Part shown: positions 16,949 to 59,300 of the stretch, one piece after another
Layout of the letters: every line of letters starts with the position of its first letter
How positions within the stretch are numbered: position 1 is the stretch's first letter
NCBI GenBank assembly: GCA_947385945.1
Contig: CANDMY010000006.1
Location: 1 to 64,000, forward strand
Direction: 5' to 3'
Source of the DNA: an uncultured Clostridia bacterium
Lineage (GTDB): Bacteria; Bacillota; Clostridia; Lachnospirales; Lachnospiraceae
DNA: 64,000 nucleotides
Notes under the pieces: generated by a model
Databases searched by the model: none
Told to the model about the DNA's origin: nothing
The model's input: the letters and a program-made list of their open reading frames with translations, nothing else
Translations under genes and position numbers: made by a program

Positions 16949-17434
16949 TTAAAAGTATTTCTTACTTCCCCAAAGATTATTCCTTTTTAAATCCAAATAT
17001 TCGTTATAAGCTTTTTCTAAAATCTGCTTTTCATTTGAAAATTTTAATAAGTGGTAAGCCTCATGAAATTTATAATAACCTGAATCCATGAAAAACTCTT
17101 CCCGCTGTGGTTTGCTGTAATAGCTGTCCGACATCATCAGATACCAGTGTACATCTTTCTCTACCATATCAGCAGGAGTTGCAAACGTATATTGGCTCTT
17201 TCCTACATATTTAATTATATTTCCCTTTACTCCTGATTCCTCCAATACTTCACGTAACGCAGTCTCCTTATACTCTTCTCCAGCCTCTACAGTCCCTTTT
17301 GGTAATACCCATCCCTCATATTTATTCTTATAATTTTTATATAAGAGTAAAATCTTACCTCGAAAAATAACCACACCGCCACAGCTCGTTGCTTCAATCA
17401 TTGCAATTCCTCCTGTCCTTTGGTGTGAAACCAA
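16949..17434 (-). CDS. NUDIX hydrolase
   Basis: Nudix box 'GTVEAGEEYKETALREVLEESGV' (GX5EX7REUXEEXGU). Confidence 0.8.
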   Translation of the reverse strand: MVSHQRTGGIAMIEATSCGGVVIFRGKILLLYKNYKNKYEGWVLPKGTVEAGEEYKETALREVLEESGVKGNIIKYVGKSQYTFATPADMVEKDVHWYLMMSDSYYSKPQREEFFMDSGYYKFHEAYHLLKFSNEKQILEKAYNEYLDLKRNNLWGSKKYF

Positions 17435-17511: not shown

Positions 17512-20280
17512 TTAGGATTCTTCCTGATCGAGAGAATACCATGTCCGAAACAGCTTATCTGCTATCGCCGCCGCTTTTGTACTTCCTGCTCCTCCCTCTT
17601 CTACAATCACACTCACTGCAATCTCTGGTTCCTCTGCAGGAGCAAACCCTACAAACCAAGAATGTGCCTCTTTCTTTACATCCCACTCTGCCGTTCCGGT
17701 CTTTCCTGCCACGGTATAATCCTCCGATGCAGCACGGCTTCCGGTTCCTTCTTCAACACACAGCATCATCCATTCTGTCAGTCTCTCTGCTTCTTCCTGG
17801 CTAATTGGTTCTCTGTACTTTTTTGGTCTATATTTCTTTACAGTAAATCCATGTGCATCTGTTATCCGATCTACAAAATAAGGCTTCATCATTACTCCGT
17901 CATTGGCAATCGCTGCTGCTATCATCGCCTGATGAAGCGGCGTCATCTCTGCCGTTCCCTGTCCGATTGCCGTCTGCATCTTCTCCCAGTCAGGTGAATC
18001 CTGCTTCCATTCAAATTGACTCGATACATAAGATAGGGCAATCGGTAAATCCTGATTTAGTAAAAAACTCTCACAAAGATCCGTAAACCGCTCTGCTGAA
18101 AGCTTTGATGCAATACTGGCAAAAGCCCCATTGCAGGATTTCGCAAAAGCCGTTTCAAAGGAAATTGTTCCATGTGCTTTTTTATGATAACACTGAATAA
18201 CAGCCCCCTGATACTCATAGGAACCCTCACAAGTATAGGAAAAATCGGAAATTTCTTCTGGAAATTCTCTGGCATACTCCAATGCCGTTAAAATCTTAAA
18301 TGTAGAACCAGGCGGATAACGCCCCTGCGTAGCACGATTTAATAGATAACTCTGCTCGGTATCAGGATTTTCCGAAAGCGATTCCCAGATCTCTTCTATT
18401 TGATTGGGATTATAATCCGGTTTTGAAACCATTGCAAGCACCTTTCCAGTAGAAGGCTCCATCACTACTACAGCCCCCTTTTCCTCTCCCAATGCTTCCC
18501 AAGCCGCTTTCTGAAGCGGATAATTTAACGTGGTCACAACTTGATTTCCTTTTTCTTTCTCTCCCTTTACTTCAGCCGCTATCTTTTCATAAATCGGAGC
18601 ATCGGAAGTTAAAAGCTGAAAATTATAAATCTTTTCCAGTCCGTCCTTTCCACTCTGTGAATATCCAACCACATGAGAAAACAGATTGCCAAACGGATAC
18701 TCTCTTACCTCTGTCCCATCTGCTTCTATCTTTGTCTCTGCCAAAATCTCTCCGTCCGCTGACAGAATCGATCCCCGCACAACTTTTTTAGCAAACTCTT
18801 CCTGCCTCAGATTATAGGGATTATTTACAACTTCCTTACTCTCCGCTAAAAGAAAATATCCCAGATAACACGGCATCAAAATAAACAATCCGGTAAAAAG
18901 ATACATAACCAGATAGAATTCCCGATTGCTGTTTCTTTTTTTTATTTGTATTTCTAACTCTATACTCTGCCCACAATCTGCCCTTACATCTGAATTTACA
19001 TTTGCATTTGCATCAGAAATATACAGTCCCTGTATAATCCCATACATAATCAGGGAACTCAGCATCGAACTTCCCCCATAACTGACAAACGGAATCGTTA
19101 CTCCAGTAGAAGGAATTAACTTCATCGCCCCGCCAATCGTTAAAAATACTTGGATCCCATATTCACAGGCAAGCCCTAATGCCATATATCGATAAAAACG
19201 GTGATGCATCTGAATTGCTGCATTTAAAATTAGCAAAAGACAGCCCAAGCAGATAAAAATAACACAGATCGCTACTAATCCTCCCATCTCTTCTGCAATT
19301 GCCGAAAAGAAAAAATCTTCCTCTACAACCGGAATCTGTGAAGGAGAGCCCTTATTGAGTCCGACTCCTAACCATCCTCCCGTTCCGATTGCAAAAAGAG
19401 ATTGTGCTATCTGATACCCTTTGCTTTCAATTACAGACCATGGATCTAACCATGCAGTCACTCTGGTCTGAATATGAGAAAATAGCTGATATGCTGTATA
19501 GGAAGCCGCTGCCCCCGCCGCCAGTCCGCCAAACAGATAAATCGGCTTTTTTGTAGCGACATAGACCATAAATACAAAGACCAATGAAAAGATCAATGCA
19601 CTCCCTAAATCAGTTGAAGCAACCAAAATCAAGATATGTATTGCTGCTAAAATTCCTGTTTTTACTACCTGCTTCCAGTCATTTCTTACCTCAAACATAG
19701 CAGCAATAAAAAATACATAGCTGATTTTTACAAATTCGGACGGCTGAAAAGAAACACCCAGCAGTGCAATCGATAACTTTGCACCATAACTGGTCTCTGC
19801 CAAAATTAAAACAACCAAAAGCAGCAGTGCCCCGGCAATTCCATAGAGCCATGCAAATTTTCTCAATGCCTTCCACTTTTTCATAATATAGGGAATTACT
19901 GCCATAAAGACCGTACCCAATGCCAAGATTAAAAACTGCCGATTGGCCTTCCCTATCGAAAGTCTTGCCAGCATAATAAACCCTATCACCATTAACATGC
20001 AAACCAAACTGGTTAAAATCTGCGATCCCTCTGGATAAGCTGTATGGAATAACGTCTCCATTAAAATCAGATAAACTAACTCTGCCCCATATAAAAGAAT
20101 TAAATTTTCATTGCCTGTAGAAAGAAACAAGGATAAAAAACCTAAAAAATGAACAGAAAACAGACAAATATTTAACACCGCCAGCTTTCTTTTTCTATAA
20201 TAGGCAAAAGAATAATACGTATATACCATAATCAGCAGAATAATCAGATATTTTGAAAATTCCTCTATCAGATGAATCAT
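17512..20280 (-). CDS. Fused SEDS glycosyltransferase (FtsW/RodA family) and class B penicillin-binding protein transpeptidase (922 aa)
   Basis: N-terminal part (about 430 aa) is multi-TM with SEDS-like motifs. The C-terminal part has the PBP dimerisation and transpeptidase domain with SxxK 'STFK', SxN 'SCN' and 'KTGT' motifs. Confidence 0.75.
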   Translation of the reverse strand: MIHLIEEFSKYLIILLIMVYTYYSFAYYRKRKLAVLNICLFSVHFLGFLSLFLSTGNENLILLYGAELVYLILMETLFHTAYPEGSQILTSLVCMLMVIGFIMLARLSIGKANRQFLILALGTVFMAVIPYIMKKWKALRKFAWLYGIAGALLLLVVLILAETSYGAKLSIALLGVSFQPSEFVKISYVFFIAAMFEVRNDWKQVVKTGILAAIHILILVASTDLGSALIFSLVFVFMVYVATKKPIYLFGGLAAGAAASYTAYQLFSHIQTRVTAWLDPWSVIESKGYQIAQSLFAIGTGGWLGVGLNKGSPSQIPVVEEDFFFSAIAEEMGGLVAICVIFICLGCLLLILNAAIQMHHRFYRYMALGLACEYGIQVFLTIGGAMKLIPSTGVTIPFVSYGGSSMLSSLIMYGIIQGLYISDANANVNSDVRADCGQSIELEIQIKKRNSNREFYLVMYLFTGLFILMPCYLGYFLLAESKEVVNNPYNLRQEEFAKKVVRGSILSADGEILAETKIEADGTEVREYPFGNLFSHVVGYSQSGKDGLEKIYNFQLLTSDAPIYEKIAAEVKGEKEKGNQVVTTLNYPLQKAAWEALGEEKGAVVVMEPSTGKVLAMVSKPDYNPNQIEEIWESLSENPDTEQSYLLNRATQGRYPPGSTFKILTALEYAREFPEEISDFSYTCEGSYEYQGAVIQCYHKKAHGTISFETAFAKSCNGAFASIASKLSAERFTDLCESFLLNQDLPIALSYVSSQFEWKQDSPDWEKMQTAIGQGTAEMTPLHQAMIAAAIANDGVMMKPYFVDRITDAHGFTVKKYRPKKYREPISQEEAERLTEWMMLCVEEGTGSRAASEDYTVAGKTGTAEWDVKKEAHSWFVGFAPAEEPEIAVSVIVEEGGAGSTKAAAIADKLFRTWYSLDQEES

Positions 20281-20301
20281 ACTCTACTACCTCCCTTGTA
20301 C

Positions 20302-22596
20302 TTACTCAACCCCCCGTTTTAAATGCCCTCTGGTAAATGCAAAAGGTTCTTCTAAAAATATCCTATTCTTCCGATATGCCTGAATAAATTTCGAAAGAAT
20401 TTCCGTCATCTCCGCTACTGACTCCAAAGTAAAATCCAATCGTACCGCAGCAGGTGCAATCCGATCCACTTCTTTTTTTGCACTTAAAAGAGAAAGCGGC
20501 TTACAGTTATAAATTTTATTATAACAAAACTTACATCTGTTTTTTACGATAAATTCATTGTGATAGCGATCCGTCAGTGTTAAAATGCCCGCCTGCTTCT
20601 TACACCCCTTCTTATTTTTCATAATACACTGTGCCGATACCATCATAGGAAGATAGCCATAGACAATCAATTCACTCTTTTGATCGGCTATCTGTGCCAA
20701 TTCCTTTCCGTTTAACTCCAAAGGAAGCGTAATCCACTCTGCTTTCCACTGTTCTTCAAATACCCGCATACTCTCAGAATTAAATCCATAAAGCGTAGAA
20801 TCAAACCGAATCGAAACAGATTCTTTTCTCTCCCTATTCTTCTCCCTAACAAAAGAAAGCTCATCTAAATTTCTTACAACAAATCCGTCTATCCCTGCCT
20901 GCAATAACAGCTCATACTCCTGCTCTAACCACGCCTGCTCCAGATCTCGAAAGACAGGAGGCAGCATACAGTAAAACTGCTTTTTAGGAAACTGTTCCCG
21001 ATAACGTTTTATCTCCGCTGCCGAAAACTCACCGGCGTCCAAATAAATGGCAGAAATCTCCGAAAACGCCGCTGCCGCTGCTACATACTCCTTTTTTTCC
21101 AGATATACATGAATCGGATAAAACGGCTGATCTGTAAAATCCACCTGTTTTTCGGTCTTTTTCCTATGATTTTCTCTGCAGAGTTCCTCTTCCTCACTGC
21201 GGCAATAAGGCTGCAGCAAAAATTTCTGCAGCTGCTCTAATGCCCTTCTTCGCAGTTCATTTAATTCCGTTACACGAATAAAACTTTTCCCGTCTGTCTG
21301 AACAGAAAGCTCCGAAAAATAAAAAGGCGTACCGCCAGTTTTCTCTATCTGTCTGCGAATATTTTCCTGTGTAATTGGCTGTTTTTGTGCCAAAGCCACT
21401 TCTTCTCCCCATACCGTTACCCTATTTCCTTCTTCCTCTACCGTAAGTTCTGCTCTCTCTCCGCACTGCACCACAACCTTTCCGCAGACAGCCTCCTGAA
21501 GCTCTTCAGCAAGAAATTTTTTTCGAATATTTTTTATTAACTCCTGATTTCTGCTTTCATTCTCTCCCTCTTTCCCCTGAAAAAATATCATATCTTTTCC
21601 GTTTCTTTCTACATAATATCCCTTTGTAAATCCACCCCGATTATAGAGATCATATAGAATCTTTTTATCCTTATCCGACACCAAAAAACGCTCTCTTCCA
21701 TACTCCAAATACCAATCTAAATATTTTCGATAGATACTAACTACTCCTGCTGTATACTCTAATTTTTTCATTCTGCCTTCAATTTTAAGAGAATACACTC
21801 CCGCCTCTAAAATATCCGGCAGCAGTTCAATACTGCACAAATCCTTTGGACTTAAAAAATACCGTTCTTCCTTCTGACCTTTCTGTCCTCCCGGTTCACC
21901 AACCTGATAAGGCAGACGGCAGGGCTGTGCACAACGTCCCCTATTTCCGCTTCTTCCTCCTGCCAAACTGCTAAATAAACACTGCCCGGAATAGCAGTAG
22001 CAAAGTGCCCCATGTACAAAGCTCTCTATCTCTAAAGTCTCTAGCCCCTTTGTTCTATGAATCTTTCGAATCTCTTCCAATGAAAGTTCCCGTGCCATTA
22101 CCACCCGGGCAGCCCCCATTTCTTTTAAAAGTTTTGCCCCATAGACTCCCGTCAATGTCATCTGTGTACTAGCGTGAATTGGAAGCTTTGGAAAATTCCT
22201 TTGAATAAAAGAAAATACCCCGATATCCTGCACAATAACGGCGTCTAACCCCTGCCGATAAAAAGGCAGCAGATAAGAGTACAGCTTTTCTTCCATCTCC
22301 TCTTCCTTCAATAAAGTATTCACTGTCAAATACAACTTTCTCTTATGAAGATGCACAAAATCAATTGCTGATAATAAAGCTTCGGTATCTAAATTGTTGG
22401 CATAAGCCCTTGCACCAAATAAATTTCCCCCCAAATAAACGGCATCTGCTCCTGCCAAAACAGCCGCTTCCATCGTCTCATAAGAACCAGCAGGTGCCAG
22501 CAGTTCTGCCCTTTTTGCATGATGCACGTTATATTCCTGTCTTTTCTCTAAATCCATACCTCTTCTAACATACTTCCTTTCTAAAAAGAATGTCAT
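20302..22596 (-). CDS. Peptidase U32 family protein (collagenase-like / RlhA-TrhP-like), long form with a C-terminal extension
   Basis: N-terminal 'ELLAPAGS' and the U32 signature region 'E.F.HGALC..YSGQC..S' are present. A GGAG RBS lies before the ATG at 22596. The further upstream ATG lacks an RBS. Confidence 0.75.
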   Translation of the reverse strand: MTFFLERKYVRRGMDLEKRQEYNVHHAKRAELLAPAGSYETMEAAVLAGADAVYLGGNLFGARAYANNLDTEALLSAIDFVHLHKRKLYLTVNTLLKEEEMEEKLYSYLLPFYRQGLDAVIVQDIGVFSFIQRNFPKLPIHASTQMTLTGVYGAKLLKEMGAARVVMARELSLEEIRKIHRTKGLETLEIESFVHGALCYCYSGQCLFSSLAGGRSGNRGRCAQPCRLPYQVGEPGGQKGQKEERYFLSPKDLCSIELLPDILEAGVYSLKIEGRMKKLEYTAGVVSIYRKYLDWYLEYGRERFLVSDKDKKILYDLYNRGGFTKGYYVERNGKDMIFFQGKEGENESRNQELIKNIRKKFLAEELQEAVCGKVVVQCGERAELTVEEEGNRVTVWGEEVALAQKQPITQENIRRQIEKTGGTPFYFSELSVQTDGKSFIRVTELNELRRRALEQLQKFLLQPYCRSEEEELCRENHRKKTEKQVDFTDQPFYPIHVYLEKKEYVAAAAAFSEISAIYLDAGEFSAAEIKRYREQFPKKQFYCMLPPVFRDLEQAWLEQEYELLLQAGIDGFVVRNLDELSFVREKNRERKESVSIRFDSTLYGFNSESMRVFEEQWKAEWITLPLELNGKELAQIADQKSELIVYGYLPMMVSAQCIMKNKKGCKKQAGILTLTDRYHNEFIVKNRCKFCYNKIYNCKPLSLLSAKKEVDRIAPAAVRLDFTLESVAEMTEILSKFIQAYRKNRIFLEEPFAFTRGHLKRGVE

Positions 22597-22632
22597 GTCT
22601 TTCTCCTGAGAATGACATGACATGTTCTATTC

Positions 22633-23097
22633 TTATTTATCCTGTTTTTCATTCTTATGCTGCCCATCTTTACTTTTCTCTTCCTTTTGTACCGTTTTCG
22701 TATGTGTTGCTTCTGCCTCTAAACGAATAATCGTCTTCTCCTGTTCACTCACTGTCCTTCGAAGAGCTTCCAATTCCAGTTCTTCCTCCTCCATACGAAT
22801 CTTTAATCCTACTAACTCATGTTTTAAATTCGAAATCTCCTTATTGCGATCCTCCAATTCCAAACTTGCTGTATCTGCACTTTTCTTTGCTTTATAATAA
22901 TCATCTGCCACATTTAGATACATTAGGATATTTTGTACCTCTCGGTTCTGACGTTTATATCCCTCTGCCATACGTACCTCAGAAAGTTTCGCATTAATAT
23001 ATGCAGCCACTTTATTTAGATATTCCGGGTCTTCATATCCGCTTAATGTATATACTTTTCCGTCAATAACCACCTGTACATTGTTCTTTAGTGCCAT
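22633..23097 (-). CDS. zapA: Cell division protein ZapA-like with a C-terminal coiled-coil extension
   Basis: N-terminal 'VVIDGKVYTLSGYEDPEYLNKVAAYINAKL' is typical of ZapA. It sits immediately upstream of the U32 peptidase. Confidence 0.7.
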   Translation of the reverse strand: MALKNNVQVVIDGKVYTLSGYEDPEYLNKVAAYINAKLSEVRMAEGYKRQNREVQNILMYLNVADDYYKAKKSADTASLELEDRNKEISNLKHELVGLKIRMEEEELELEALRRTVSEQEKTIIRLEAEATHTKTVQKEEKSKDGQHKNEKQDK

Positions 23098-23217: not shown

Positions 23218-24207
23218 TTATTTTAATCCCAAATGCTGATAAGCCAGATCTGTTACAATTCTTCCGCGAGGTGTCCGCTGCAAAAATCCATTCTGAATCA
23301 GATAAGGCTCAATCACTTCCTCTAAGGTCCCCGCATCCTCTCCCAATGCCGCTGCCAACGTATCCAATCCACAAGGACCTCCTGCGAACTTTTGTATCAA
23401 AGTAAGCAAAAACATCCGATCACTATTATCTAGTCCATACTTATCCACTTCCAGCAAATCCAAAGCAAAATTTGCCACGCTCTCCGTAATCACCCCATTA
23501 TACTTCACCTGTGCAAAATCCCGCACTCTTCTCAACAGCCGATTGGCAAGCCGAGGAGTCCCCCGGCTTCTTCTAGCCATCTCCATTGCCCCTGCCGGCT
23601 CTATCTCCACTTTCAATACCTTAGCTGAGCGAAGTAAAATTGTCTGCAGTTCTTCCGGCGTATAAAATTCCAATCGATGAATCACCCCAAACCGATCCCG
23701 AAGAGGTGCCGTTAAAAGTCCTGCCCTAGTCGTAGCCCCCACCAGAGTAAACTTTGGCAAATCCAGCCGAATCGATCGTGCCGTAGCCCCCTTTCCAATC
23801 ACAATATCAATTGCAAAATCTTCCATTGCCGGATAGAGTACCTCTTCCACCTGCCGGTTTAACCGATGAATTTCATCAATAAACAGCACATCTCCCTCCT
23901 GCAGATTATTTAAAATAGCCGCTATTTCCCCCGGTTTTTCAATCGCAGGACCAGAAGTAATCTTCATATTTGTTCCCATCTCATTGGCAATAATTCCTGC
24001 AAGTGTCGTCTTCCCCAGTCCGGGAGGACCATAAAACAATACATGATCTAATGGCTCTTTTCGGCTCTTTGCAGCCTCAATATATATTTTAAGATTTTCC
24101 TTTGCCTTTGCCTGTCCAATATAGTCCTTTAAAAGCTGTGGTCTAAGATGATTTTCCACACTGCTGTCTTCTTCTGTCAGCTCTGTTGTTATAATTCTCT
24201 TTGCCAT
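23218..24207 (-). CDS. ruvB: Holliday junction branch migration helicase RuvB
   Basis: Walker A 'GPPGLGKTT', 'FIDEIHRL', arginine finger and winged-helix C-terminus. About 329 aa. Confidence 0.95.
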
Positions 24208-24223
24208 ATATAACCCTTCCGTC

Positions 24224-24832
24224 CTACCGACTGATCGTTTTTAAAGAAGCCTTTAGCAACGCTTCTACTGTCATTTCTTCTGTCACTGTTACCGCCCGAA
24301 CCGCACGAAGAGCATCTGTCGGACTATATCCTAAAGCCGTCAATGCCTGCACCGCCTCATTCTGAATCTCTGCAGTCTGTCCCAAGAGCGACTTCTCCTC
24401 ATTTGCTATCTTCTGCTCAAATGCCTCTTCTAACTTTAATTTATCCTTTAATTCAATTACCATCTTCTGTGCTGTCTTGTTTCCGATTCCAGGTGCTTTT
24501 GCAATCGTTTTCGCATCTCCCGCCAATACGGCAAACCGCAGTTCATCTGCAGAAATGGTAGAAAGAATGGCTAAAGCTCCCTTTGGACCTATCCCGCTTA
24601 CCCCTAAAAGAAGCCGAAAAATATTCATGTCATCTCTATTTAAAAATCCATATAAATCCAAAATATCTTCCCTTACATAGAGATATGTAAAAATTTGAAT
24701 TTCACTGCCCACTGCCGGAAGCTTAGCAATAACAGCAGCAGGAACCCGTATTAAATACCCGATTCCATGATTCTCTACAACTGCAAAATCGGTACCAGCT
24801 TCTTTTAATTCCCCTTTAATATAATAAATCAT
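24224..24832 (-). CDS. ruvA: Holliday junction DNA helicase RuvA
   Basis: About 202 aa with HhH motifs '[17 protein letters not shown]' and '[13 protein letters not shown]'. Directly upstream of ruvB. Confidence 0.9.
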
Positions 24833-26031: not shown

Positions 26032-27459
26032 CTATTTATTCTCCGTCTGAGGCAGACTAATCCGCACAAACCGCCTTAAAAACTCCCGTCCATTAAAAGG
26101 AAACAACGGATACAAATAACTCTTTCCCGAAAGCGTGCGATTCTGACAAATACAAAATACCGCAAACAAAATTCCAAATCCATATCCCCAAACATCCAAT
26201 ATCTGTGTAAGCAGCAAGGTAATCAACCGCATAAACTTAAGTGCAAACCCCAGCTCAAAACTAGGCTGCGAATAATTTGCCAACACCACAAAAGCCATAT
26301 AAAGCATAGACTCCGAATTAAACCACCCCGACTGTACCGCATAATCTCCTAATACTAAACCCGCAATTACGCTTAAAGGCGTACTAAGCATATTAGGTGT
26401 ATTCACAGCCGCAAGCCGCAACCCATCAATCGCAAATTCCAAAATAATCAACTGCCAAATCAAAGGAACCTGTATCTCTTCAGCCGGAAAGATAAACGCA
26501 AGCCATTCTGGAACCCACTCTGGATTTTTCATAAGCAACAGCCAAGTAGGTGTCAAAATCATTGTCAAGATCGTAATAATAAATCGTGACACTCTAAGAT
26601 AAGTCCCTGTAACAGGAGGAAAATAATAATCATCTGCTTCCTCTAAAATATCAAATACCGAACAAGGCAGAATCATAGCGGAAGGAGAATTATCTACTAA
26701 AACCGCAATCCCTCCTTCCAATATCGATGCCGCTGCCGTATCTGGACGCTCGGTATATTTATACTTCGGAAACGGATTCCACCATCCCCTTCTATAGAGA
26801 CATTCCGCCAAACTCTCCTGATTCATAGTCAATGCATCAATATCAATTTTTTTAATTCTCTGAATCAACTCCTTTAAAAATTCAGGATCGACACGATCTC
26901 TCATATAGCAGACAGCTATATCCGTCTTAGAAGAACGCCCCACTGTATAGATCTCATTTGTCAATTCCGTACTTCGAATTCGGCGGCGAATTAATGCCGT
27001 ATTGGATACCATCGTTTCTACAAATCCATCCCTAGAACCACGCATTACCCTATCTTTTTCCGGTTCCTCTACTCCCCTTGACGGATAACTTCTGCAGTCA
27101 ATCAGATAAGCTTCCTGATACCCCTCTACAAACATTGCAACCACACCGGAAAGTACATTTTTTATAATCGTATCCTCTTTTGTCTCTAATTCCACCTCTA
27201 AATAAGACAAATATTTTTTAGAAAATCCTGCTGCATCGGACGGCATATCCTCTTTTTTAATACTAACAAAAGATGCCATTAACTTCTGCATATCGTCATC
27301 TTTTACAAAACCATTTACAAAAAAATAAACTGCATTTCGCTCACCAATCAAAAGTTCTTTATATAAAATATCAAAACTATCCTCTGTCCGCAAAAGCTGC
27401 TGGAACCGTTTTAAGGTATTTTGAAAATTCAGCTGATCTGTCTTATCCATTCCTCCCAC
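26032..27459 (-). CDS. Spore germination protein, GerA-family A subunit / SpoVAF-like
   Basis: About 475 aa. Soluble N-terminal domain, then a C-terminal multi-TM region, with the family-typical 'ILEGGIAVLVDNSPSAMILP' segment. No GerB/GerC partners are adjacent. Confidence 0.7.
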   Translation of the reverse strand: MGGMDKTDQLNFQNTLKRFQQLLRTEDSFDILYKELLIGERNAVYFFVNGFVKDDDMQKLMASFVSIKKEDMPSDAAGFSKKYLSYLEVELETKEDTIIKNVLSGVVAMFVEGYQEAYLIDCRSYPSRGVEEPEKDRVMRGSRDGFVETMVSNTALIRRRIRSTELTNEIYTVGRSSKTDIAVCYMRDRVDPEFLKELIQRIKKIDIDALTMNQESLAECLYRRGWWNPFPKYKYTERPDTAAASILEGGIAVLVDNSPSAMILPCSVFDILEEADDYYFPPVTGTYLRVSRFIITILTMILTPTWLLLMKNPEWVPEWLAFIFPAEEIQVPLIWQLIILEFAIDGLRLAAVNTPNMLSTPLSVIAGLVLGDYAVQSGWFNSESMLYMAFVVLANYSQPSFELGFALKFMRLITLLLTQILDVWGYGFGILFAVFCICQNRTLSGKSYLYPLFPFNGREFLRRFVRISLPQTENK

Positions 27460-33700: not shown

Positions 33701-34009
33701 CTATTTTTCCAATTTTTTCATCTCTAAAATAATTCGATCCAAATCTTCTAACGACTGCTTAATAGAACTATTTACCGCTGCTGAACTGCTTGCCAATTCC
33801 CCGACTTTTGTAGCAACAATCGCAAATCCTTTTCCGGCATCTCCGGCTCGTGCTGCTTCTATTGAAGCATTCAATGCTAAAATTTTTTGCTGACTTTCAA
33901 TTTTATCCAAATTTTTTGTCTTATCTAAAATTTCCCTAATACAATCGTCTGCCCGATCAATACAAGCCTTTAACTCCTCAAATTGAACTCCTGTTTCTTT
34001 CGTCTCCAT
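33701..34009 (-). CDS. Stand-alone mini-protein carrying a methyl-accepting chemotaxis protein signalling-domain core (102 aa)
   Basis: '[34 protein letters not shown]' matches the highly conserved MCP tip '[31 protein letters not shown]'. Confidence 0.55.
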
Positions 34010-46412: not shown

Positions 46413-46961
46413 ATGCCCTGCACAGAAGCATACAGAAAACACATCATGTATACGTTCAATAGCTATTGCAAGACCGTTATACGCTTTGCGGCTATTAACG
46501 CATGGCGTGACAGGAGCAGACGGCGGCAAAAGGAAATATCCCTTGAATACCTCACAGAAGAAAAGTTTTACCCTTTAGGCACAACAGACGAATATTTTGA
46601 AGCACCCTATAAAGAATACCCCGTTACGATATGCGGTCAAACTTGTATTGCGGGAGCTGCCGCCAGCTTCAAAGACCGTAACGAATATATCTCCCGCCTT
46701 TGCAGCTTCCCCTTGCTTATCCTTGATGATTTCGGCATGGAGCGTGGCACGGAATACGGCTTAGAGCAAATCTATAACGTGGTTGACAGCCGATACCGCA
46801 GCGGCAAGCCGTTAATCGTGACAACGAACCTCACGCTGGAAGAATTGCAGAACCCGGAGGACACCGCCCACGCCCGCATTTATGACCGCCTTACAGAAAT
46901 GTGCTGCCCCGTCTGCATTACCGGGGAGAATTTCAGAAAAACCAAAGCACAGGCGGACTAA
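46413..46961 (+). pseudogene. Mobile-element relic: IstB/DnaC-like ATPase C-terminal fragment fused to an unrelated N-terminal stretch
   Basis: 'PLLILDDFGMERGTEYGLEQIYNVVDSRYRSGKPLIVTTNLTLEEL' is the Walker B and sensor region of IstB/DnaC helper ATPases. No Walker A is present. The locus is GC-rich. Confidence 0.55.
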
Positions 46962-52978: not shown

Positions 52979-54169
52979 TTATGCTCCTGTCAAAATCACC
53001 CGTGCATATTCTGGATTGATCTCCGCCAGTTTTTTCTTCTCGGTCTCCGCCATTTCTAAAAATGCACGATTTCCTTCCATATTTTGCCGAAGCATTTTTC
53101 GGCGTCCATTTAGATCATGCCGAACTTCCACCATCTCTCTTGCATCTAACAATGCCGTAGCATATCCCACCCAAAATCTAGGCTGTTCTACCATATATTC
53201 AGTAAGAACTCCAACCACTTCCATCTCTGCTTTATGCAGCTGATCTGAGCTGGCCCGATATTTTTCCCGATTCTTCTTTTCCTCTAAATATAAACCCCAG
53301 ATAAAATTCAATTCATACGCACTGCTCACTTCATATTTGGCATACTGATACTGAATACTATTAATGATCATAACATATCGTGCCTTTACACGGTTTAAAA
53401 GCAAGATGGCTTTTTTTAGCTTTCGATCCGCCAGCCGCAGCTCTTTTGCAGCTTTTTGAAATATCAAAAAAGTAATCGTTAAAAGCACCCCGACTACTCC
53501 CAGCATAACATAAAGAAAATTTTCATAGTCTTCTTTCAGCAGTATCATACAGACCAGATAAAATACAATACTAATCCCCAACAATACGACCGACCATTCT
53601 ACTGCTTTTTTTGCAATGATTTTTTTGGAATATAATTCGTCTTTTTCATAGCGGATAGAGGTCTTCTCTGCCTCTAAATGCCGCATATCCTGTTCCAAGG
53701 TATGTGCATATTTTTCATCTTCATCTAGCTGTGCCATCATAGAACGGATTCCTTCTCCATATTCCTCCATCTTCTGATACTGCTTTTCACTAATCTTGCT
53801 TTCTGTACTTTGAAATTTTTTTCGCTCTTTATTAATCTCTTCTATCCGCATAGCGGCATCAAAAAGTTCCTGCTTATCTTTTTGTTCCATTCCTTCAATT
53901 TTCTGCACATCATTTAATATACTGCCGATTCTTCCATACTCCTCTTTCAATTCGGAAAGCTGCCGCTTAGCTGCCTGCTTCTGTTCATTTAAATGCTTGA
54001 TATATTCAAAACACTCCTCCTCACTGTTCATTCGATAGGCCTTTTGTACCTCCAGTTTGCCGTAACCGTTTTTTCCTGTTCCGTCTTCTCCTAGGTATTC
54101 CTGTATCGTCTGTTTGCCTTCTAAAGAATGTTTTTCTTTTCTCTTAAAAAGTTTTTTCCAAAATCCCAT
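52979..54169 (-). CDS. Hypothetical membrane protein (N-terminal coiled coil, two central TM helices, C-terminal coiled coil). It is the last gene of a three-gene operon.
   Basis: TM helices 'VVLLGISIVFYLVCMILL' and 'VMLGVVGVLLTITFLIF'. An 8-bp gap separates it from the upstream ORF. Confidence 0.55.
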   Translation of the reverse strand: MGFWKKLFKRKEKHSLEGKQTIQEYLGEDGTGKNGYGKLEVQKAYRMNSEEECFEYIKHLNEQKQAAKRQLSELKEEYGRIGSILNDVQKIEGMEQKDKQELFDAAMRIEEINKERKKFQSTESKISEKQYQKMEEYGEGIRSMMAQLDEDEKYAHTLEQDMRHLEAEKTSIRYEKDELYSKKIIAKKAVEWSVVLLGISIVFYLVCMILLKEDYENFLYVMLGVVGVLLTITFLIFQKAAKELRLADRKLKKAILLLNRVKARYVMIINSIQYQYAKYEVSSAYELNFIWGLYLEEKKNREKYRASSDQLHKAEMEVVGVLTEYMVEQPRFWVGYATALLDAREMVEVRHDLNGRRKMLRQNMEGNRAFLEMAETEKKKLAEINPEYARVILTGA

Positions 54170-54176
54170 ATTTTAA

Positions 54177-56327
54177 TCAACCTTCCATCTCATACCGATA
54201 TGCTTCCATCCACTCCTGAAGCTGCTTTTTGGCATACTCCTCAAACTGTCCTAACTTTCCCTGCTTTCTGCTGTGAAATGCCTCTGCCGCCAAATAATTT
54301 CTGTCATCCTCTATAGCTCCACTTTCCAATACTTTCCACTCCCGCTCCCACTCCATTACCTGTTCTGCATCTGTCCGCTTTTTCCACTCGGCATAATCGA
54401 CTTCCATTCCCGCCAAGTGCAGCGTCAGCAAAAGTTTTTTTAAAATTTCATCCTGTGGTACATACTCATAAGCCTTTTTAAAAAAACCGGAGGCTTCTTC
54501 AAAATAAAACATTTCCATATAGAGTACCCCGATATTGTGATAAACAAAGCCAAAGAATTCCTTGGGTTCTTCGGAAGTTTCTTCCATTTTTAATAATAAT
54601 TGATATTGGTTTCTTGCCTGAATATATCTGCACTCTGTCAAATACATATCTCCCAACAGCTTCAGCCGCTCCTCCCGGCTCTGTGTTCCAAAATAGGCAA
54701 GTTTTTCTAAAATCCTCTTCCACTCCGCTTCCCTATAATATCCGGTACTCTCCATCACTGCTGCAATATATTCTCCCAGAGGTGCTTCTTTCTTTTTTGC
54801 ATACTCCAATTGATCTGCCAGCCGTTTCATATCCAGGTTATCTCGAATAAAATCAATCAATTTTGTATCAAAGAATTCCGGCTCCAGAAGATAGCAATTA
54901 TGATAAAGATAATAGCAAATCTCATCAATCGAATACAGTGCCTGTCTGCTCTCTTCTGCTTCATAGGGGGAACGGCTTCTTCTGCTGCCGCATAATAAAA
55001 ACTGTCCCCCCTCTTGTACTGCCTCTTCTTTCTTTTCTCCAATCTCAGAAAATAGTTCAAAAAGTTCTAATTTCTTTTGTATTACCGTCCCGCTGCTCTC
55101 TGCATACTGCCCAAATCCCAGATCGGCTACATGGAGAACTGCTTCTCCCTCCGATAAAAAAGAAAGAGAAACTTCTACTCGTGTCATCTTAGGTTCCCGA
55201 TAGGGAAATGCCGAAAGAGGCAGCCGATATTCTAGTTTCCCTGAAACTCCCTGTCGTGTGATTACAAAAAAAAGTTCTGCCGCACCGTCTAAAATTCCTT
55301 CCATCTGTGCTTTTGCATGATACCAATTTTTCCCTTCCTTTACCAGATTGAGCAGATGCCTTCCTCCCTTTCGATAGACACGAACTCCTATACTGACAGG
55401 AATACAGCCCTTCATCCGCATTGTTACCGTATCCATCAAGCCTTTCGAGATATGATCATATGCACTTAAACTGGCTCCCTTTGTGTATAAATTCATTCCC
55501 AAAAAGACCCGTTTCCTGCTGCATAGATATTTTAATGCAGAAACTGCCCAGTTTTCTTTTTGACAAAATCCCTCTCCTATTAGATAGACACAGCTAACCG
55601 GTGGTCTTATAATCTGCTGCATCAGCAATTCCAAGAAATTTTGATCCGCCCTTTGCCTGCCTTCTTCTGTCTCTAACAACGCAATTTTAAAATAATCCGA
55701 ATAATCGGTTTCTATCAATTCTAACAGCAGTTCTCCTGCCTTTTGATCCCGATGAAGTCTTCTGCATAAAAAGTGCTCTTCGGTAAAATCAAAAAACAGC
55801 ACATCTAGCTTCCACAATTCTTTCGGTCTGCTCAATGCATAACATACTGCACTTTCCTGCTCACTCATCGCAAAAAGATTGTTCTCCTTGATTCCTAACC
55901 GCATCAGACAGCGAAAGATCACATCCAATAAAAATCCGCTCTGTTCCCAAAGAGAAATCGCTACTGCATCGATTTCTCTTCCAATCATCTCTACTCCTGG
56001 AATAAAAAGCAGCGTCTCTCTTAGAAAAATTTCCAAAAGTTCTTCTGCCGAATATCCGTTTAACACTTCCATTTCCTGATGGAGTACCCGTAGAATTAGC
56101 TGGTCTACCAATATCCCCTTATGCTGAAGATGTGCCTCCCATGCCTCTTTTCCAATTACCCATCCCTCTTCGGTCTGTGCAATCAGACAGGGAATCTCAT
56201 AGCCAGATCGATCCGAAAGCGGACCCACCGACTCTGCATCCTCTCGATCCTCAATATAAAAACTCAGCTGTATTTTATCTTTTTGGATATCATAACCTGC
56301 TACCAGTTTCTTTTCCAATTTTTCCAC
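54177..56327 (-). CDS. Hypothetical large protein (716 aa) with a TPR-like C-terminal region. It is the middle gene of the three-gene operon.
   Basis: Long intact ORF. Its start lies 2 bp after the upstream stop. No recognised catalytic motif. Confidence 0.55.
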   Translation of the reverse strand: MEKLEKKLVAGYDIQKDKIQLSFYIEDREDAESVGPLSDRSGYEIPCLIAQTEEGWVIGKEAWEAHLQHKGILVDQLILRVLHQEMEVLNGYSAEELLEIFLRETLLFIPGVEMIGREIDAVAISLWEQSGFLLDVIFRCLMRLGIKENNLFAMSEQESAVCYALSRPKELWKLDVLFFDFTEEHFLCRRLHRDQKAGELLLELIETDYSDYFKIALLETEEGRQRADQNFLELLMQQIIRPPVSCVYLIGEGFCQKENWAVSALKYLCSRKRVFLGMNLYTKGASLSAYDHISKGLMDTVTMRMKGCIPVSIGVRVYRKGGRHLLNLVKEGKNWYHAKAQMEGILDGAAELFFVITRQGVSGKLEYRLPLSAFPYREPKMTRVEVSLSFLSEGEAVLHVADLGFGQYAESSGTVIQKKLELFELFSEIGEKKEEAVQEGGQFLLCGSRRSRSPYEAEESRQALYSIDEICYYLYHNCYLLEPEFFDTKLIDFIRDNLDMKRLADQLEYAKKKEAPLGEYIAAVMESTGYYREAEWKRILEKLAYFGTQSREERLKLLGDMYLTECRYIQARNQYQLLLKMEETSEEPKEFFGFVYHNIGVLYMEMFYFEEASGFFKKAYEYVPQDEILKKLLLTLHLAGMEVDYAEWKKRTDAEQVMEWEREWKVLESGAIEDDRNYLAAEAFHSRKQGKLGQFEEYAKKQLQEWMEAYRYEMEG

Positions 56328-56328
56328 C

Positions 56329-59300
56329 TCACATTAGTGTACTGTTTTTCTCCACCAACTTCTGCTTTTTTAGATACTGTTCCATCAGCTCCGCTAATGT
56401 CTGCTCATCCTGCATCTCAACCGAAACACACATATCATTCAGCATATCATAACGACTGTCTCTGCCGATACTGTTCCAATGGCTAATCGAAACTGCATCA
56501 CTTTCTGTCAGCCCTGTTCCGCTTTCATTTTCTTCTGAAATATAATACTGCAGCTTCTCTCCATAGAATAAAATCATCTGTTTTCCATAGATTCCTTCAT
56601 AGATATGCTCCATCTTTTCAATCCGATATTCCAACTGTTCTTTCTCTTCTGTATCCAAACTATAGTGCAGAAAAACCTTGCTGCCAGGTTCTGTCCGATA
56701 TTCCAATATCGTCTTATCCCGCAGAGCAAACGGCAGCAGAATCCGATCAGCAAGCCTTTGATAAAATGAAAAATATTTTCCGTTTAAAGAAAGAACTTCT
56801 AATAATTGTTCTGCAATCTTTTTCTCTGCTTCGGTATTTCTCTCTTTTTTTGCCAGCCAGGAAAGCAGTGCCATCTGATTAATCGGCAGCAGTGTTTTTT
56901 GAAATTGGTATTCTCTTGCCAAATATTGAAAAATCTTTTCATCAATTATCATATCCTGTACAAAATACTGATAAGACTGATAGGCAAGATAAGCCTCCTT
57001 TACCATCTGGCTTCTGCCGTCCCTATAATAAGAAGAAAAAATCTCTTCCATATCGGGAACAAATGCCCCGGTAAATAAAATCTGCACCAAAATCCGTTCC
57101 TCTAATTCCGCCGTTGCAATTTCAAAATCTACTGCAGATTTCCAAAGACGACACATCTCCTTGGTTGTATTATTATAATACTGTACCAGATATTCCAAAA
57201 TGGTTTCTTCGTATTTTCCCTTTCGATAGACACTTGCACACGCCTTTAACAGCATCTCATCTTCTGCCATCTGCAGCTGCCCAATCTGATAAATACAAAG
57301 CCGCAGCAGCCGATTCGGCGAAATTCCCTCCACTTTACAGCTATCTAACATTTCCCATGCATCTTCATACATGGTTCGAACAATTAACAGCTCTATCACC
57401 TGTATACTCTCCCCTGCTTCTAACTGTTCCTTATAGATCGAATCCAAATAGGATTCTAACTGTTCTCCCTCGCAGTGTTCTAAATAATAGTCCAAAATAT
57501 GCTGTACTATCATACTTCGATAGGATTTCTTTAAAAGAGAAAAAGCTGCCGTCTGTTTAAACAGCTTCATTCTATCATTTTCCTCTGGCAAATAGATCAT
57601 CTCATGTTCACACAGATAAAGCCATACCCAGATATCCCCTTCCGAAAGCCGCTGACACTCCCGAATCAATTTTCTGTCTTTTATCAAATCTTCAATCTGA
57701 TACTCGGTATGCTCCCAAAACCGTCTTCCCTGCCTATCTTCAAATACCACTGCACAGTCTGAAGTAAAGACAGGAAAATAGACCTCCCCCTGCTCTAGCG
57801 GCAGTTTCCACTCACAGTCTAACTCCTTATGCCGAATAATGACATGGGATACTTTGGGATTTTGGCAGCACAACCGCTTTGTAAGAAGTATTGCCGGCAG
57901 CTTTTCCGCCACCGTCTCATCAATCATTGCTGAAGAAAGCACTCCCAGATAGATTCGTGCAAGCCTCTTACTGATATGCCCTTTTCTTAGCTGATCTTCT
58001 GCAAACTGTTCTATCGCAGGCAGATAATTCCTCAGCATAGCCGGATTCTCCGATCCATACATCATAATATTGCTGTAGAGCAGTTCCTTCCGTTCCTCAT
58101 CCAATGTCTGATCATAGATAAAATAAAGCTGTATCGATTTAGGAAGTTCCCCGTAAAAATAATAAGGAAGTGTATTCATATACGCTTCATAGAGTCCCGT
58201 CATTGTAATCTGCCGCTGTACTCCCTCCTGAAACCAGGCAAAGTTTTCCTGTTCCATACGAAAGTTTCGAATTAACTGCGACAACAAAGCTTCTAATGCC
58301 GTTCGATTTTGATACGTTTGATAAATCTCTTTTAAAATCCGAATTAACAGCGGATAGTACCGCTGTTCTGTCAATGCCTGTTCTGCAATCTGTGCTGCAG
58401 CCCTTTCATTTAATATCCCATGTACAATTCCCCACCAAGCTGTACGCAGTTCAAACAGATCCAATACTCGGATAAGTATCGGCATTTCATTCATTACCAT
58501 ACACGCTTCATAATATAAAAATGAACTATTGCTGCCGATTAAAAATTGTTCCTTAATTCGAGCCAAGCGAAGGCTTTTATTTACGGCACATTCTTCATCT
58601 AAATATAAGATTACCCAGAGCATCCTGTCATCTTTCGGATGTTTCTCATACAACTCTTTTACCTGTGCAGCAGCATCTCTGGCAAATAGAGCATCTCTTG
58701 TTAAAAGAGTATAGACATATAAATAATAGCTGTATAAAAAAGGTTCTTCCTCCCGATTCGGAACAATCCACTCTGCAAGTACAGCCAATCTTCCCGCTGC
58801 CTCTTTGGTCTTTCGCATCGTGATCCATACCTGAACCTCCAAAAGCTGAATAAAGCTGTCCTCTAAATGCAGCCGCTTCATTCTTGTAATCGTCTCCAAA
58901 GAATCCCGGCACCAGATATCCGTTGTAATCTTATGCAGCCGAAAAGCAAAGTATAATTGGGAAAGCCGAAAAAGCCCCTTTTTCTGCTCCAAAGTATGCT
59001 TCTCCTTTTCTGTATAACGATAGACCAAAATTTCATATTCCAAATTTTGATATGGCGTCTCAAGATAAATCTTTCCAAAATTATAGCCGGCATGTACCCT
59101 GCTCTCTTCTATCTGATAATACAGGGCAAAACTATTTCCGGCAAATTCTTCTGTGGTAAACCGGCGGCGATCCATTCGGATAAAGTCCCCATCTACCTCG
59201 ATCTCAACCTCCATATAGCCCCAAGTGTCTTTTTTTATAACAAAACTATCTCCAATGGTCTCTGTAAAGTCTAAATATTCCTGCCTTTCCTGTTCCAGCA

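Follow-up and report, generated by a model that had tools for sequence, protein, structure and literature searches.

Does the Lachnospiraceae locus described here encode a peptidoglycan polymerase of the SEDS family and a penicillin-binding protein of class B (bPBP) in one polypeptide, and if so, which process of wall synthesis would that polypeptide serve? The question is raised by a single open reading frame (ORF) in a stretch of 64,000 nucleotides from an uncultured Clostridia bacterium (assembly GCA_947385945.1, contig CANDMY010000006.1, positions 1 to 64,000), referred to below as the window. We find that the ORF is a genuine natural SEDS-bPBP fusion in which the active-site residues of both enzymes are complete. 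Analysis of its homologues, predicted structure, and gene neighborhood makes it quite likely that the product is a functional single-chain peptidoglycan synthase, with septal synthesis as its most likely use. Proteins of this kind have already been published, also from Lachnospiraceae, and the window gene is one more member.

The ORF lies on the minus strand, where the listing of ORFs and the translation give an ATG start followed by 922 uninterrupted amino acids and a stop, whereas translation of the same interval on the plus strand meets many stops. Its features, with the evidence for each, are as follows.

17512..20280, minus strand: whole fused ORF (FtsW-type SEDS plus PbpA-type class B PBP), 922 codons plus stop; Pfam and homologues
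20290..20295, minus strand: Shine-Dalgarno sequence GGGAGG, 9 nt 5' of the ATG, inside the 21-nt gap behind the U32 gene
20026..20280, minus strand: N-terminal extension, residues 1-85; AlphaFold2 predicted local distance difference test (pLDDT) score 82-96, hydropathy, conservation
18988..20025, minus strand: SEDS glycosyltransferase core, residues 86-431, ten transmembrane (TM) helices; PF01098, PDB sequence matches, AlphaFold2 helices
19735-19737, 19726-19728, and 19609-19611, minus strand: codons of E182, K185, and D224; alignment, codons verified
19315..19317, minus strand: codon of D322; alignment, codon verified
18925..18987, minus strand: cytoplasmic linker, residues 432-452; AlphaFold2, conservation
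18826..18924, minus strand: bPBP membrane anchor helix, residues 453-485, running in to out; hydropathy, AlphaFold2
18481..18825, minus strand: PbpA-type pedestal, residues 486-600 (PF21922 at 502-581); Pfam, Foldseek to 4mnr and 3un7
17536..18480, minus strand: D,D-transpeptidase domain, residues 601-915; PF00905, motifs, Foldseek to 4mnr
18304-18306, minus strand: codon of S659, in the S659xxK662 motif of the transpeptidase domain

An original prediction, made from the letters of the window, had described one 922-aa ORF in which a multi-TM SEDS part of about 430 aa is followed by a bPBP pedestal and a transpeptidase domain with STFK, SxN, and KTG motifs. This description is borne out, with its coordinates exact and the strand, which it left unstated, being the minus strand. 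The SEDS part takes up residues 1-431, within which Pfam places FTSW_RODA_SPOVE (PF01098) at residues 91-417 (E 1.9e-57; 195.3 bits against a cut-off of 26.4). The second half carries the PbpA-type pedestal PBP_dimer_2 (PF21922) at residues 502-581 (E 4e-11; 43.5 bits against a cut-off of 27) and Transpeptidase (PF00905) at residues 602-911 (E 7.4e-64; 216.3 bits), with the motifs S659-T-F-K662, S715-C-N717, and K860-T-G862. Class A PBPs also combine a polymerase and a transpeptidase on one polypeptide, but their polymerase is a GT51 domain, whereas that of the window protein is a polytopic SEDS protein; GT51 is not among its Pfam matches, and the protein is therefore not classed as a class A PBP.

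The active sites can be examined by comparison with solved proteins. By sequence, the SEDS part matches FtsW (8bh1) and RodA (8tj3_B and 6bar) in the PDB, with E values of about 1e-25. In phmmer alignments to solved SEDS proteins, through which residue equivalences were counted by hand, D322 aligns with the catalytic aspartate of RodA (D262 in Escherichia coli, D255 in Thermus thermophilus), and E182, K185, and D224 align with E. coli RodA E114, K117, and D159. D322 sits in extracellular loop 4 (ECL4, about residues 267-333). These four residues and all three PBP motifs are kept in 105 of 105 homologues, so that the SEDS catalytic residues, whose absence the original prediction had named as a way in which it might fail, are in place. 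Across the same 105 homologues, mean identity to the window protein reaches 55% for the SEDS core and 50% for pedestal plus transpeptidase; the anchor (39%) and the N-terminal extension (35%) are less conserved, and the linker, at 15%, is the least so. The linker is K/E-rich and ranges from 11 to 110 aa.

From these comparisons, polymerization of lipid II by the SEDS part and cross-linking by the transpeptidase would be the expected activities. It is conceivable that one of the domains is catalytically dead and that the protein serves as a scaffold or regulator. Nothing specific points to this beyond the fact that no equivalog cut-off is reached (see below), and it is made highly improbable by the invariance of the catalytic residues of both domains and by the conservation of both domains (about 50-55% identity across the family, compared with 15% for the linker).

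Topology prediction, which the original prediction had proposed as a check, is consistent with two working enzymes. The AlphaFold2 model, based on the 105 homologues, has a mean pLDDT of 88.9 and a predicted template modeling score of 0.77. Together with hydropathy it gives 14 TM helices, three at the N terminus, ten in the SEDS core, and the PBP anchor, with both active sites outside. The ten SEDS helices span residues 87-431, a region that also contains a beta-hairpin (162-178) and a large outer loop (267-333); from the model and the charge distribution, the large extracytoplasmic loop lies between SEDS TM7 and TM8, and both ends of the core are predicted to be cytoplasmic. The positive-inside rule is satisfied by RKRK at 29-32, KKWKALRK at 134-141, KK at 244-245, HHR at 358-360, and the basic linker, and since the predicted order of helices obeys it, both catalytic centers should face outward. 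With SEDS TM10 ending in the cytoplasm and an anchor of the PBP that runs from inside to outside, the predicted topology calls for no rearrangement for the two enzymes to work together. In such an arrangement, the SEDS part would use D322 as its catalytic aspartate to polymerize lipid II on the outside of the membrane, and the tethered transpeptidase would use S659 to cross-link the nascent strand.

The N-terminal extension consists of predicted TM helices at residues 2-30, 33-55, and 59-81 ahead of SEDS TM1, and a Pfam search assigned these three helices (residues 1-85) to no family. Y82 is invariant, and Y11, Y20, and Y64 are each retained in 90% or more of homologues. With the three added helices, the N terminus would lie outside and the TM helices total 14. 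At least the last helix of this extension, with a YP motif, is shared by the separate SEDS protein of one related locus (L081), and the extension is shorter in a fused homologue from Coriobacteriales.

The periplasmic half can be compared with known structures directly. In Foldseek searches it superposes on PDB 4mnr, entitled 'D,D-transpeptidase domain of peptidoglycan glycosyltransferase from Eggerthella lenta', with a template modeling score normalized to the target (TMt) of 0.90 and a root mean square deviation of 2.3 A, as well as on Mycobacterium tuberculosis PbpA (TMt about 0.85) and beta-lactam complexes from Atopobium parvulum. The top 50 Foldseek matches all concern the PBP half, and the SEDS fold is accordingly judged by sequence matches and not by superposition. 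Across M. tuberculosis PbpA (3un7/3lo7) and the Eggerthella and Atopobium proteins (4mnr, 4jbf), the shared periplasmic fold and pedestal correspond to TMt values of 0.84-0.90 and identities of 30-36%. PDB titles show that the homologous Atopobium transpeptidase domain has been crystallized with penicillins. Entries 4mnr, 4jbf, 4n1x, 4r23, and related ones are named 'peptidoglycan glycosyltransferase', and their chains of about 410-480 residues hold only the transpeptidase half. This name, which misleads database users, was presumably inherited from fused SEDS-PBP parent genes in Eggerthella and Atopobium (Coriobacteriia), and the title of 4mnr shows that its domain was excised from a protein annotated as a glycosyltransferase.

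Is the fusion shared by relatives, and could it be an artefact? The signal exceeds chance by far: database proteins matching at E<=1e-10 number 1610, and the best 120 all have the three domains, with 43-100% identity and lengths of about 900-1000 aa; named proteins among these 120 are annotated 'FtsW/RodA/SpoVE family cell cycle protein' and come from Agathobacter. A search with the junction (residues 381-560) gave, in a rough count by eye of its top 150 matches, which mix metagenomic fragments with full-length proteins, about 37 full-length fused proteins and about 20 stand-alone PBPs. At the DNA level, a scan for the locus in GTDB, with a single genome for each species, yielded at least 599 loci, of which 80, a non-random sample, were retained for comparison. 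Most are labeled Lachnospiraceae or one of its genera (Roseburia, Acetatifactor, Dorea, Herbinix, Lachnoclostridium, Jingyaoa, Lacrimispora, and Hungatella are represented), and one is from Coriobacteriales. Reading frames could be compared in 78 complete loci: 15 are fused and 63 have two separate ORFs in differing frames. The distribution of the fusion, which the original prediction had wished to see established, thus extends to relatives in part, most sampled loci keeping the genes apart.

With the pair split and its frames overlapping in 63 of 78 related genomes, one indel error could mimic a fusion in the window, and a run of eight A residues lies inside the window linker. Such an assembly or sequencing artefact, in which a 1-nt error joined two overlapping genes, is nevertheless extremely improbable, and we reject it because of recurrence across contigs and the closed alternative frames of the linker. 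The exact 922-aa protein is NCBI MCX4268585.1 ('penicillin-binding transpeptidase domain-containing protein [Lachnospiraceae bacterium]'), and an identical protein is present on 20 independent contigs from NCBI, ENA, and Logan assemblies; other 922-aa proteins of the same 90%-identity cluster occur on 11, 8, and 4 contigs. Relatives at 74-87% identity likewise have one ORF, with linkers that vary by in-frame indels, and fused relatives with differing linker lengths extend over 55-87% identity. Both alternative frames across the window linker are closed by many stops, so that no second gene start is hidden there. The frameshift or assembly error that the original prediction had named as another way in which it might fail is, on these grounds, set aside.

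How the split pairs are organized helps to place the fused ones. The PBP ORF is in the +1 frame in 54 of the 63 split loci, and the two ORFs overlap from stop to stop by a median of 77 nt. These overlaps are 72% purine and hence open in several frames. Tens of codons, as in some of the called SEDS/PBP overlaps, would be a long overlap for coupled genes. Among the 53 split loci that could be scored, an ATG lies upstream of the anchor helix in 45 and a GTG or TTG with a site like a ribosome-binding site (RBS) in 7; in about 20 split loci the nearest ATG is 1-32 nt ahead of the SEDS stop, and in several overlaps GAGGAGG-like sites are formed by glutamate codons of the SEDS tail. This pattern of start codons and RBS-like sites probably reflects ordinary translational coupling. 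Two metagenomic loci illustrate the range: in L082 the order is ruvA-ruvB-zapA-U32-SEDS (435 aa)-PBP (499 aa) with overlapping ends, and in L083 an 85-nt spacer separates SEDS and PBP. Programmed frameshifting or transcriptional slippage, through which the split relatives might also make some fused protein, was considered and rejected: runs of A in the overlaps are for the most part no longer than six (maximum 8), and these loci have plausible start codons.

The stand-alone PBPs begin with a K/R-rich tail that matches the linker of the fused proteins, and the window anchor helix aligns with their N-terminal TM helix. On a simple neighbor-joining tree of conserved blocks, built on p-distances from loci many of which are metagenome-assembled genomes, the fused states are scattered: the window is sister to the split L014, the fused L002 is sister to the split L076, and each of the fused L001, L004, and L015 falls within a group of split loci. 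The scatter points to repeated fusion or fission. The fused gene is one of two interchangeable arrangements of a conserved gene pair and not a special invention. Whether many independent switches between overlapping, probably coupled genes and one fused gene have taken place within this one family is a proposition to which we give even chances. A single indel of a length other than a multiple of three in the purine-rich, stop-free overlap would suffice for fusing, and such an event seems to have recurred. If recurrent switching is true, the family would offer a natural replicated experiment, showing covalent linkage of polymerase and transpeptidase to be selectively near-neutral or conditionally favored, and a panel of natural linkers for structural work.

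The second part of the question, the cellular role, depends on the surroundings of the gene. Matching the window neighbors to the 80 loci by tblastn shows that the gene string ruvA-ruvB-zapA-U32 peptidase-[SEDS/PBP]-nudix is kept across Lachnospiraceae, with RuvB detected in 68 and RuvA in 67 of the 80. In the window it comprises the following genes around the fusion.

24224-24832, minus strand: ruvA, first gene of the conserved string
23218-24207, minus strand: ruvB, part of the conserved string
22633..23097, minus strand: zapA (Z-ring-associated protein), 9 nt upstream of the U32 gene, present in 71 of 80 loci
20302..22623, minus strand: U32 peptidase/DUF3656 protein, 773 aa, upstream neighbor 21 nt from the fusion, present in 77 of 80 loci
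16949..17434, minus strand: NUDIX hydrolase gene, downstream of the fusion, present in 61 of 80 loci

Since only 9 and 21 nt separate them, zapA, the U32 gene, and the fusion may be co-transcribed. The best promoter-like site on the minus strand is at 24920-24892, in a scan whose counts are near the expectation from shuffled sequence. The U32 protein, which almost always stands between zapA and the SEDS/PBP pair, has the O2-independent hydroxylases TrhP and UbiU as its best NCBIfam matches.

On this basis, a role in septal (division) wall synthesis seems somewhat better than an even proposition. It is favored by the conserved position of zapA two genes upstream, by the scores of the NCBIfam SEDS models, in which ftsW (207.9, cut-off 337.5) exceeds rodA (180.9, cut-off 336.7) and spoVE (149.8, cut-off 448.8), and by the fact that no mre genes were found near the fusion among the annotated genes of the window. 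It is also favored by the published assignment of the partner SEDS protein of this clostridial pair to the FtsW family, together with the existence of a separate elongation pair, RodA-PbpB5, in an mre/min cluster of Clostridia (PMC8136486).

Several points weigh against a septal synthase. The equivalog cut-offs of NCBIfam are all unreached, including those of ftsW and of pbp2_mrdA, which is the best model for the PBP part at 290 (cut-off 455), and the subfamily assignment consequently rests on synteny and published phylogeny. The PBP part is PbpA/PBP2-like, and in Actinobacteria the homologous pair, named RodA-PbpA, is linked to elongation or shape. Adjacency to zapA is circumstantial, as ruvAB, the U32 gene, and the nudix gene of the same string are not division genes. 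The PBP part is taken to belong to the PbpB(P1) family of Garcia et al. by way of the Lachnoclostridium phytofermentans orthologue and not from their sequences. Finally, the anchor helix is presumed to pack against SEDS TM8-9.

A serious rival reading is that the same single-chain synthase acts in elongation or shape maintenance, as a pair of the RodA-PbpA type, and not in division. The PbpA-type pedestal PF21922, the leading score of pbp2_mrdA, and the nearest solved structures (M. tuberculosis PbpA and homologues of it from Eggerthella and Atopobium) all fit such a role. So does a homologue from Coriobacteriales (L049), a fused protein of 912 aa with 35% identity over 855 contiguous residues spanning the junction, which is encoded in the actinobacterial operon FHA-FHA-PP2C-[RodA/PbpA]-PknB(PASTA). 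The window fusion, however, lies outside the fhaA-fhaB-pstP-rodA-pbpA-pknB string and has its own context of ruvAB-zapA-U32 and nudix. Placement in a zapA string instead of a Ser/Thr kinase operon makes it probable that regulation differs, and in Mycobacterium RodA and PbpA are two separate proteins. Because zapA is retained two genes upstream in most loci, ftsW outscores rodA, mreBCD were not found near the fusion in the annotated window genes, and Clostridia have their own RodA-PbpB5 pair, elongation is a less likely role than division.

A third candidate role is that of a sporulation-specific cortex synthase resembling SpoVE-SpoVD, the original prediction having mentioned sporulation as well as elongation. 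The organism does have spore genes (GerA, 26032-27459), and a synthetic SpoVE-SpoVD construct has been used in Bacillus subtilis sporulation assays (PMC10449877). The window protein nonetheless scores only 185.8 with spoVD (cut-off 688), which, like its spoVE score, is far under the cut-off and below the scores of pbp2_mrdA and ftsW, respectively. The PASTA domain typical of SpoVD is not among its Pfam matches, and the pair is kept in a housekeeping string beside zapA across the family. A fused homologue also occurs in Coriobacteriales, which are not known to sporulate. A sporulation synthase is therefore very unlikely and was rejected, leaving septal synthesis as the preferred role.

When these results are placed beside published work, the novelty suggested by the original prediction proves overrated. 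A gene pair of Clostridia, FtsW/PbpB(P1), was reported by Garcia et al. (2021, Mol Biol Evol, PMC8136486), who noted it as 'even fused in Lachnoclostridium phytofermentans'. The pair resembles the window locus in having, in Clostridia, a SEDS gene directly ahead of a gene for a non-canonical class B PBP, and the L. phytofermentans orthologue in our sample (L015) is one fused ORF coding for 973 aa, which shares the three Pfam domains and the neighbors of the window gene at about 43% identity. Their paper differs from the present analysis in that it gives no fusion prevalence, zapA/U32 context, structural analysis, or experiments, and the window holds another species' copy. Nygaard et al. (2023, PMC10449877) stated that SEDS-PBP fusions encoded by a single ORF occur in nature, with Rhodococcus RHA1 as the cited case.

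A Microlife survey of 2025 (PMC12516126) lists 117 'bifunctional bPBPs' from InterPro. As described there, natural class B fusions resemble the window protein in length (about 900-950 aa) and in the order glycosyltransferase, pedestal, transpeptidase, and a Senegalimassilia faecalis protein shares its combination of FtsW/RodA/SpoVE, PBPA_dimer (PF21922), and transpeptidase domains; Lachnospiraceae are not mentioned in the main text of the survey. The Coriobacteriales copy in our own sample differs from the window in standing in an FHA/PP2C/PknB operon and not beside zapA.

Engineered fusions provide a further comparison. The fused RodA-PBP2 of E. coli (PDB 8tj3) is catalytically active (PMC10449877), and synthetic SEDS-PBP fusions complement deletions of both genes (Fay et al. 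2010, as cited in PMC10449877). The engineered proteins (RodA-PBP2, SpoVE-SpoVD, and FtsW-PBP3) resemble the window protein in joining the SEDS C terminus to the PBP N terminus through a short cytoplasmic linker, but their linker, TSGSGSGS, is artificial, and their PBP is a canonical PBP2, PBP3, or SpoVD with a large PF03717 pedestal. In the window protein, by contrast, the K/E-rich linker is natural, the pedestal is of the small PbpA type, and three helices are added at the N terminus.

In the searchable literature we found neither the prevalence of the fusion, its repeated origin, the zapA/U32 synteny, or the three-helix N-terminal extension, nor an experiment on any natural SEDS-bPBP fusion. 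What is added here is a family-wide zapA-linked locus, the presence of fused forms in about one fifth of the sampled species, and a conserved N-terminal extension. SEDS-bPBP complexes are central antibiotic targets, and a natural, high-confidence single-chain fusion would be convenient for expression, cryo-electron microscopy, and interface studies, a purpose it shares with the engineered RodA-PBP2. The window fusion is at the same time one data point in a fused/split polymorphism that perhaps deserves proper phylogenetic treatment.

Other genes of the window, separate from the locus discussed above, are listed as minor observations. An 812-aa protein with major-vault-protein domains (MVP_shoulder, E 1e-22; Vault_3, E 7e-7) is encoded at 2304-4742 on the minus strand, and the adjoining gene at 5140-6927, on the same strand, encodes a 595-aa actin-fold protein resembling PilM/FtsA/MreB. 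Such vault-like proteins are uncommon among bacteria. Three adjacent large genes occupy 52979-59892 on the minus strand and encode proteins of 396 aa without a Pfam match, 716 aa with DUF5716_C and TPR, and 1187 aa with DUF5717_N and DUF5717 (E 1.7e-265). At 33701-34009 (minus strand), a 102-aa ORF corresponds to part of a methyl-accepting chemotaxis protein signaling domain and looks like a truncated chemoreceptor or gene fragment. An IstB-like ATPase fragment at 46413-46961 (plus strand), limited to the C-terminal portion of the profile, and a tyrosine recombinase of the XerC/D type at 59990-60832 (minus strand) may be remnants of mobile elements.

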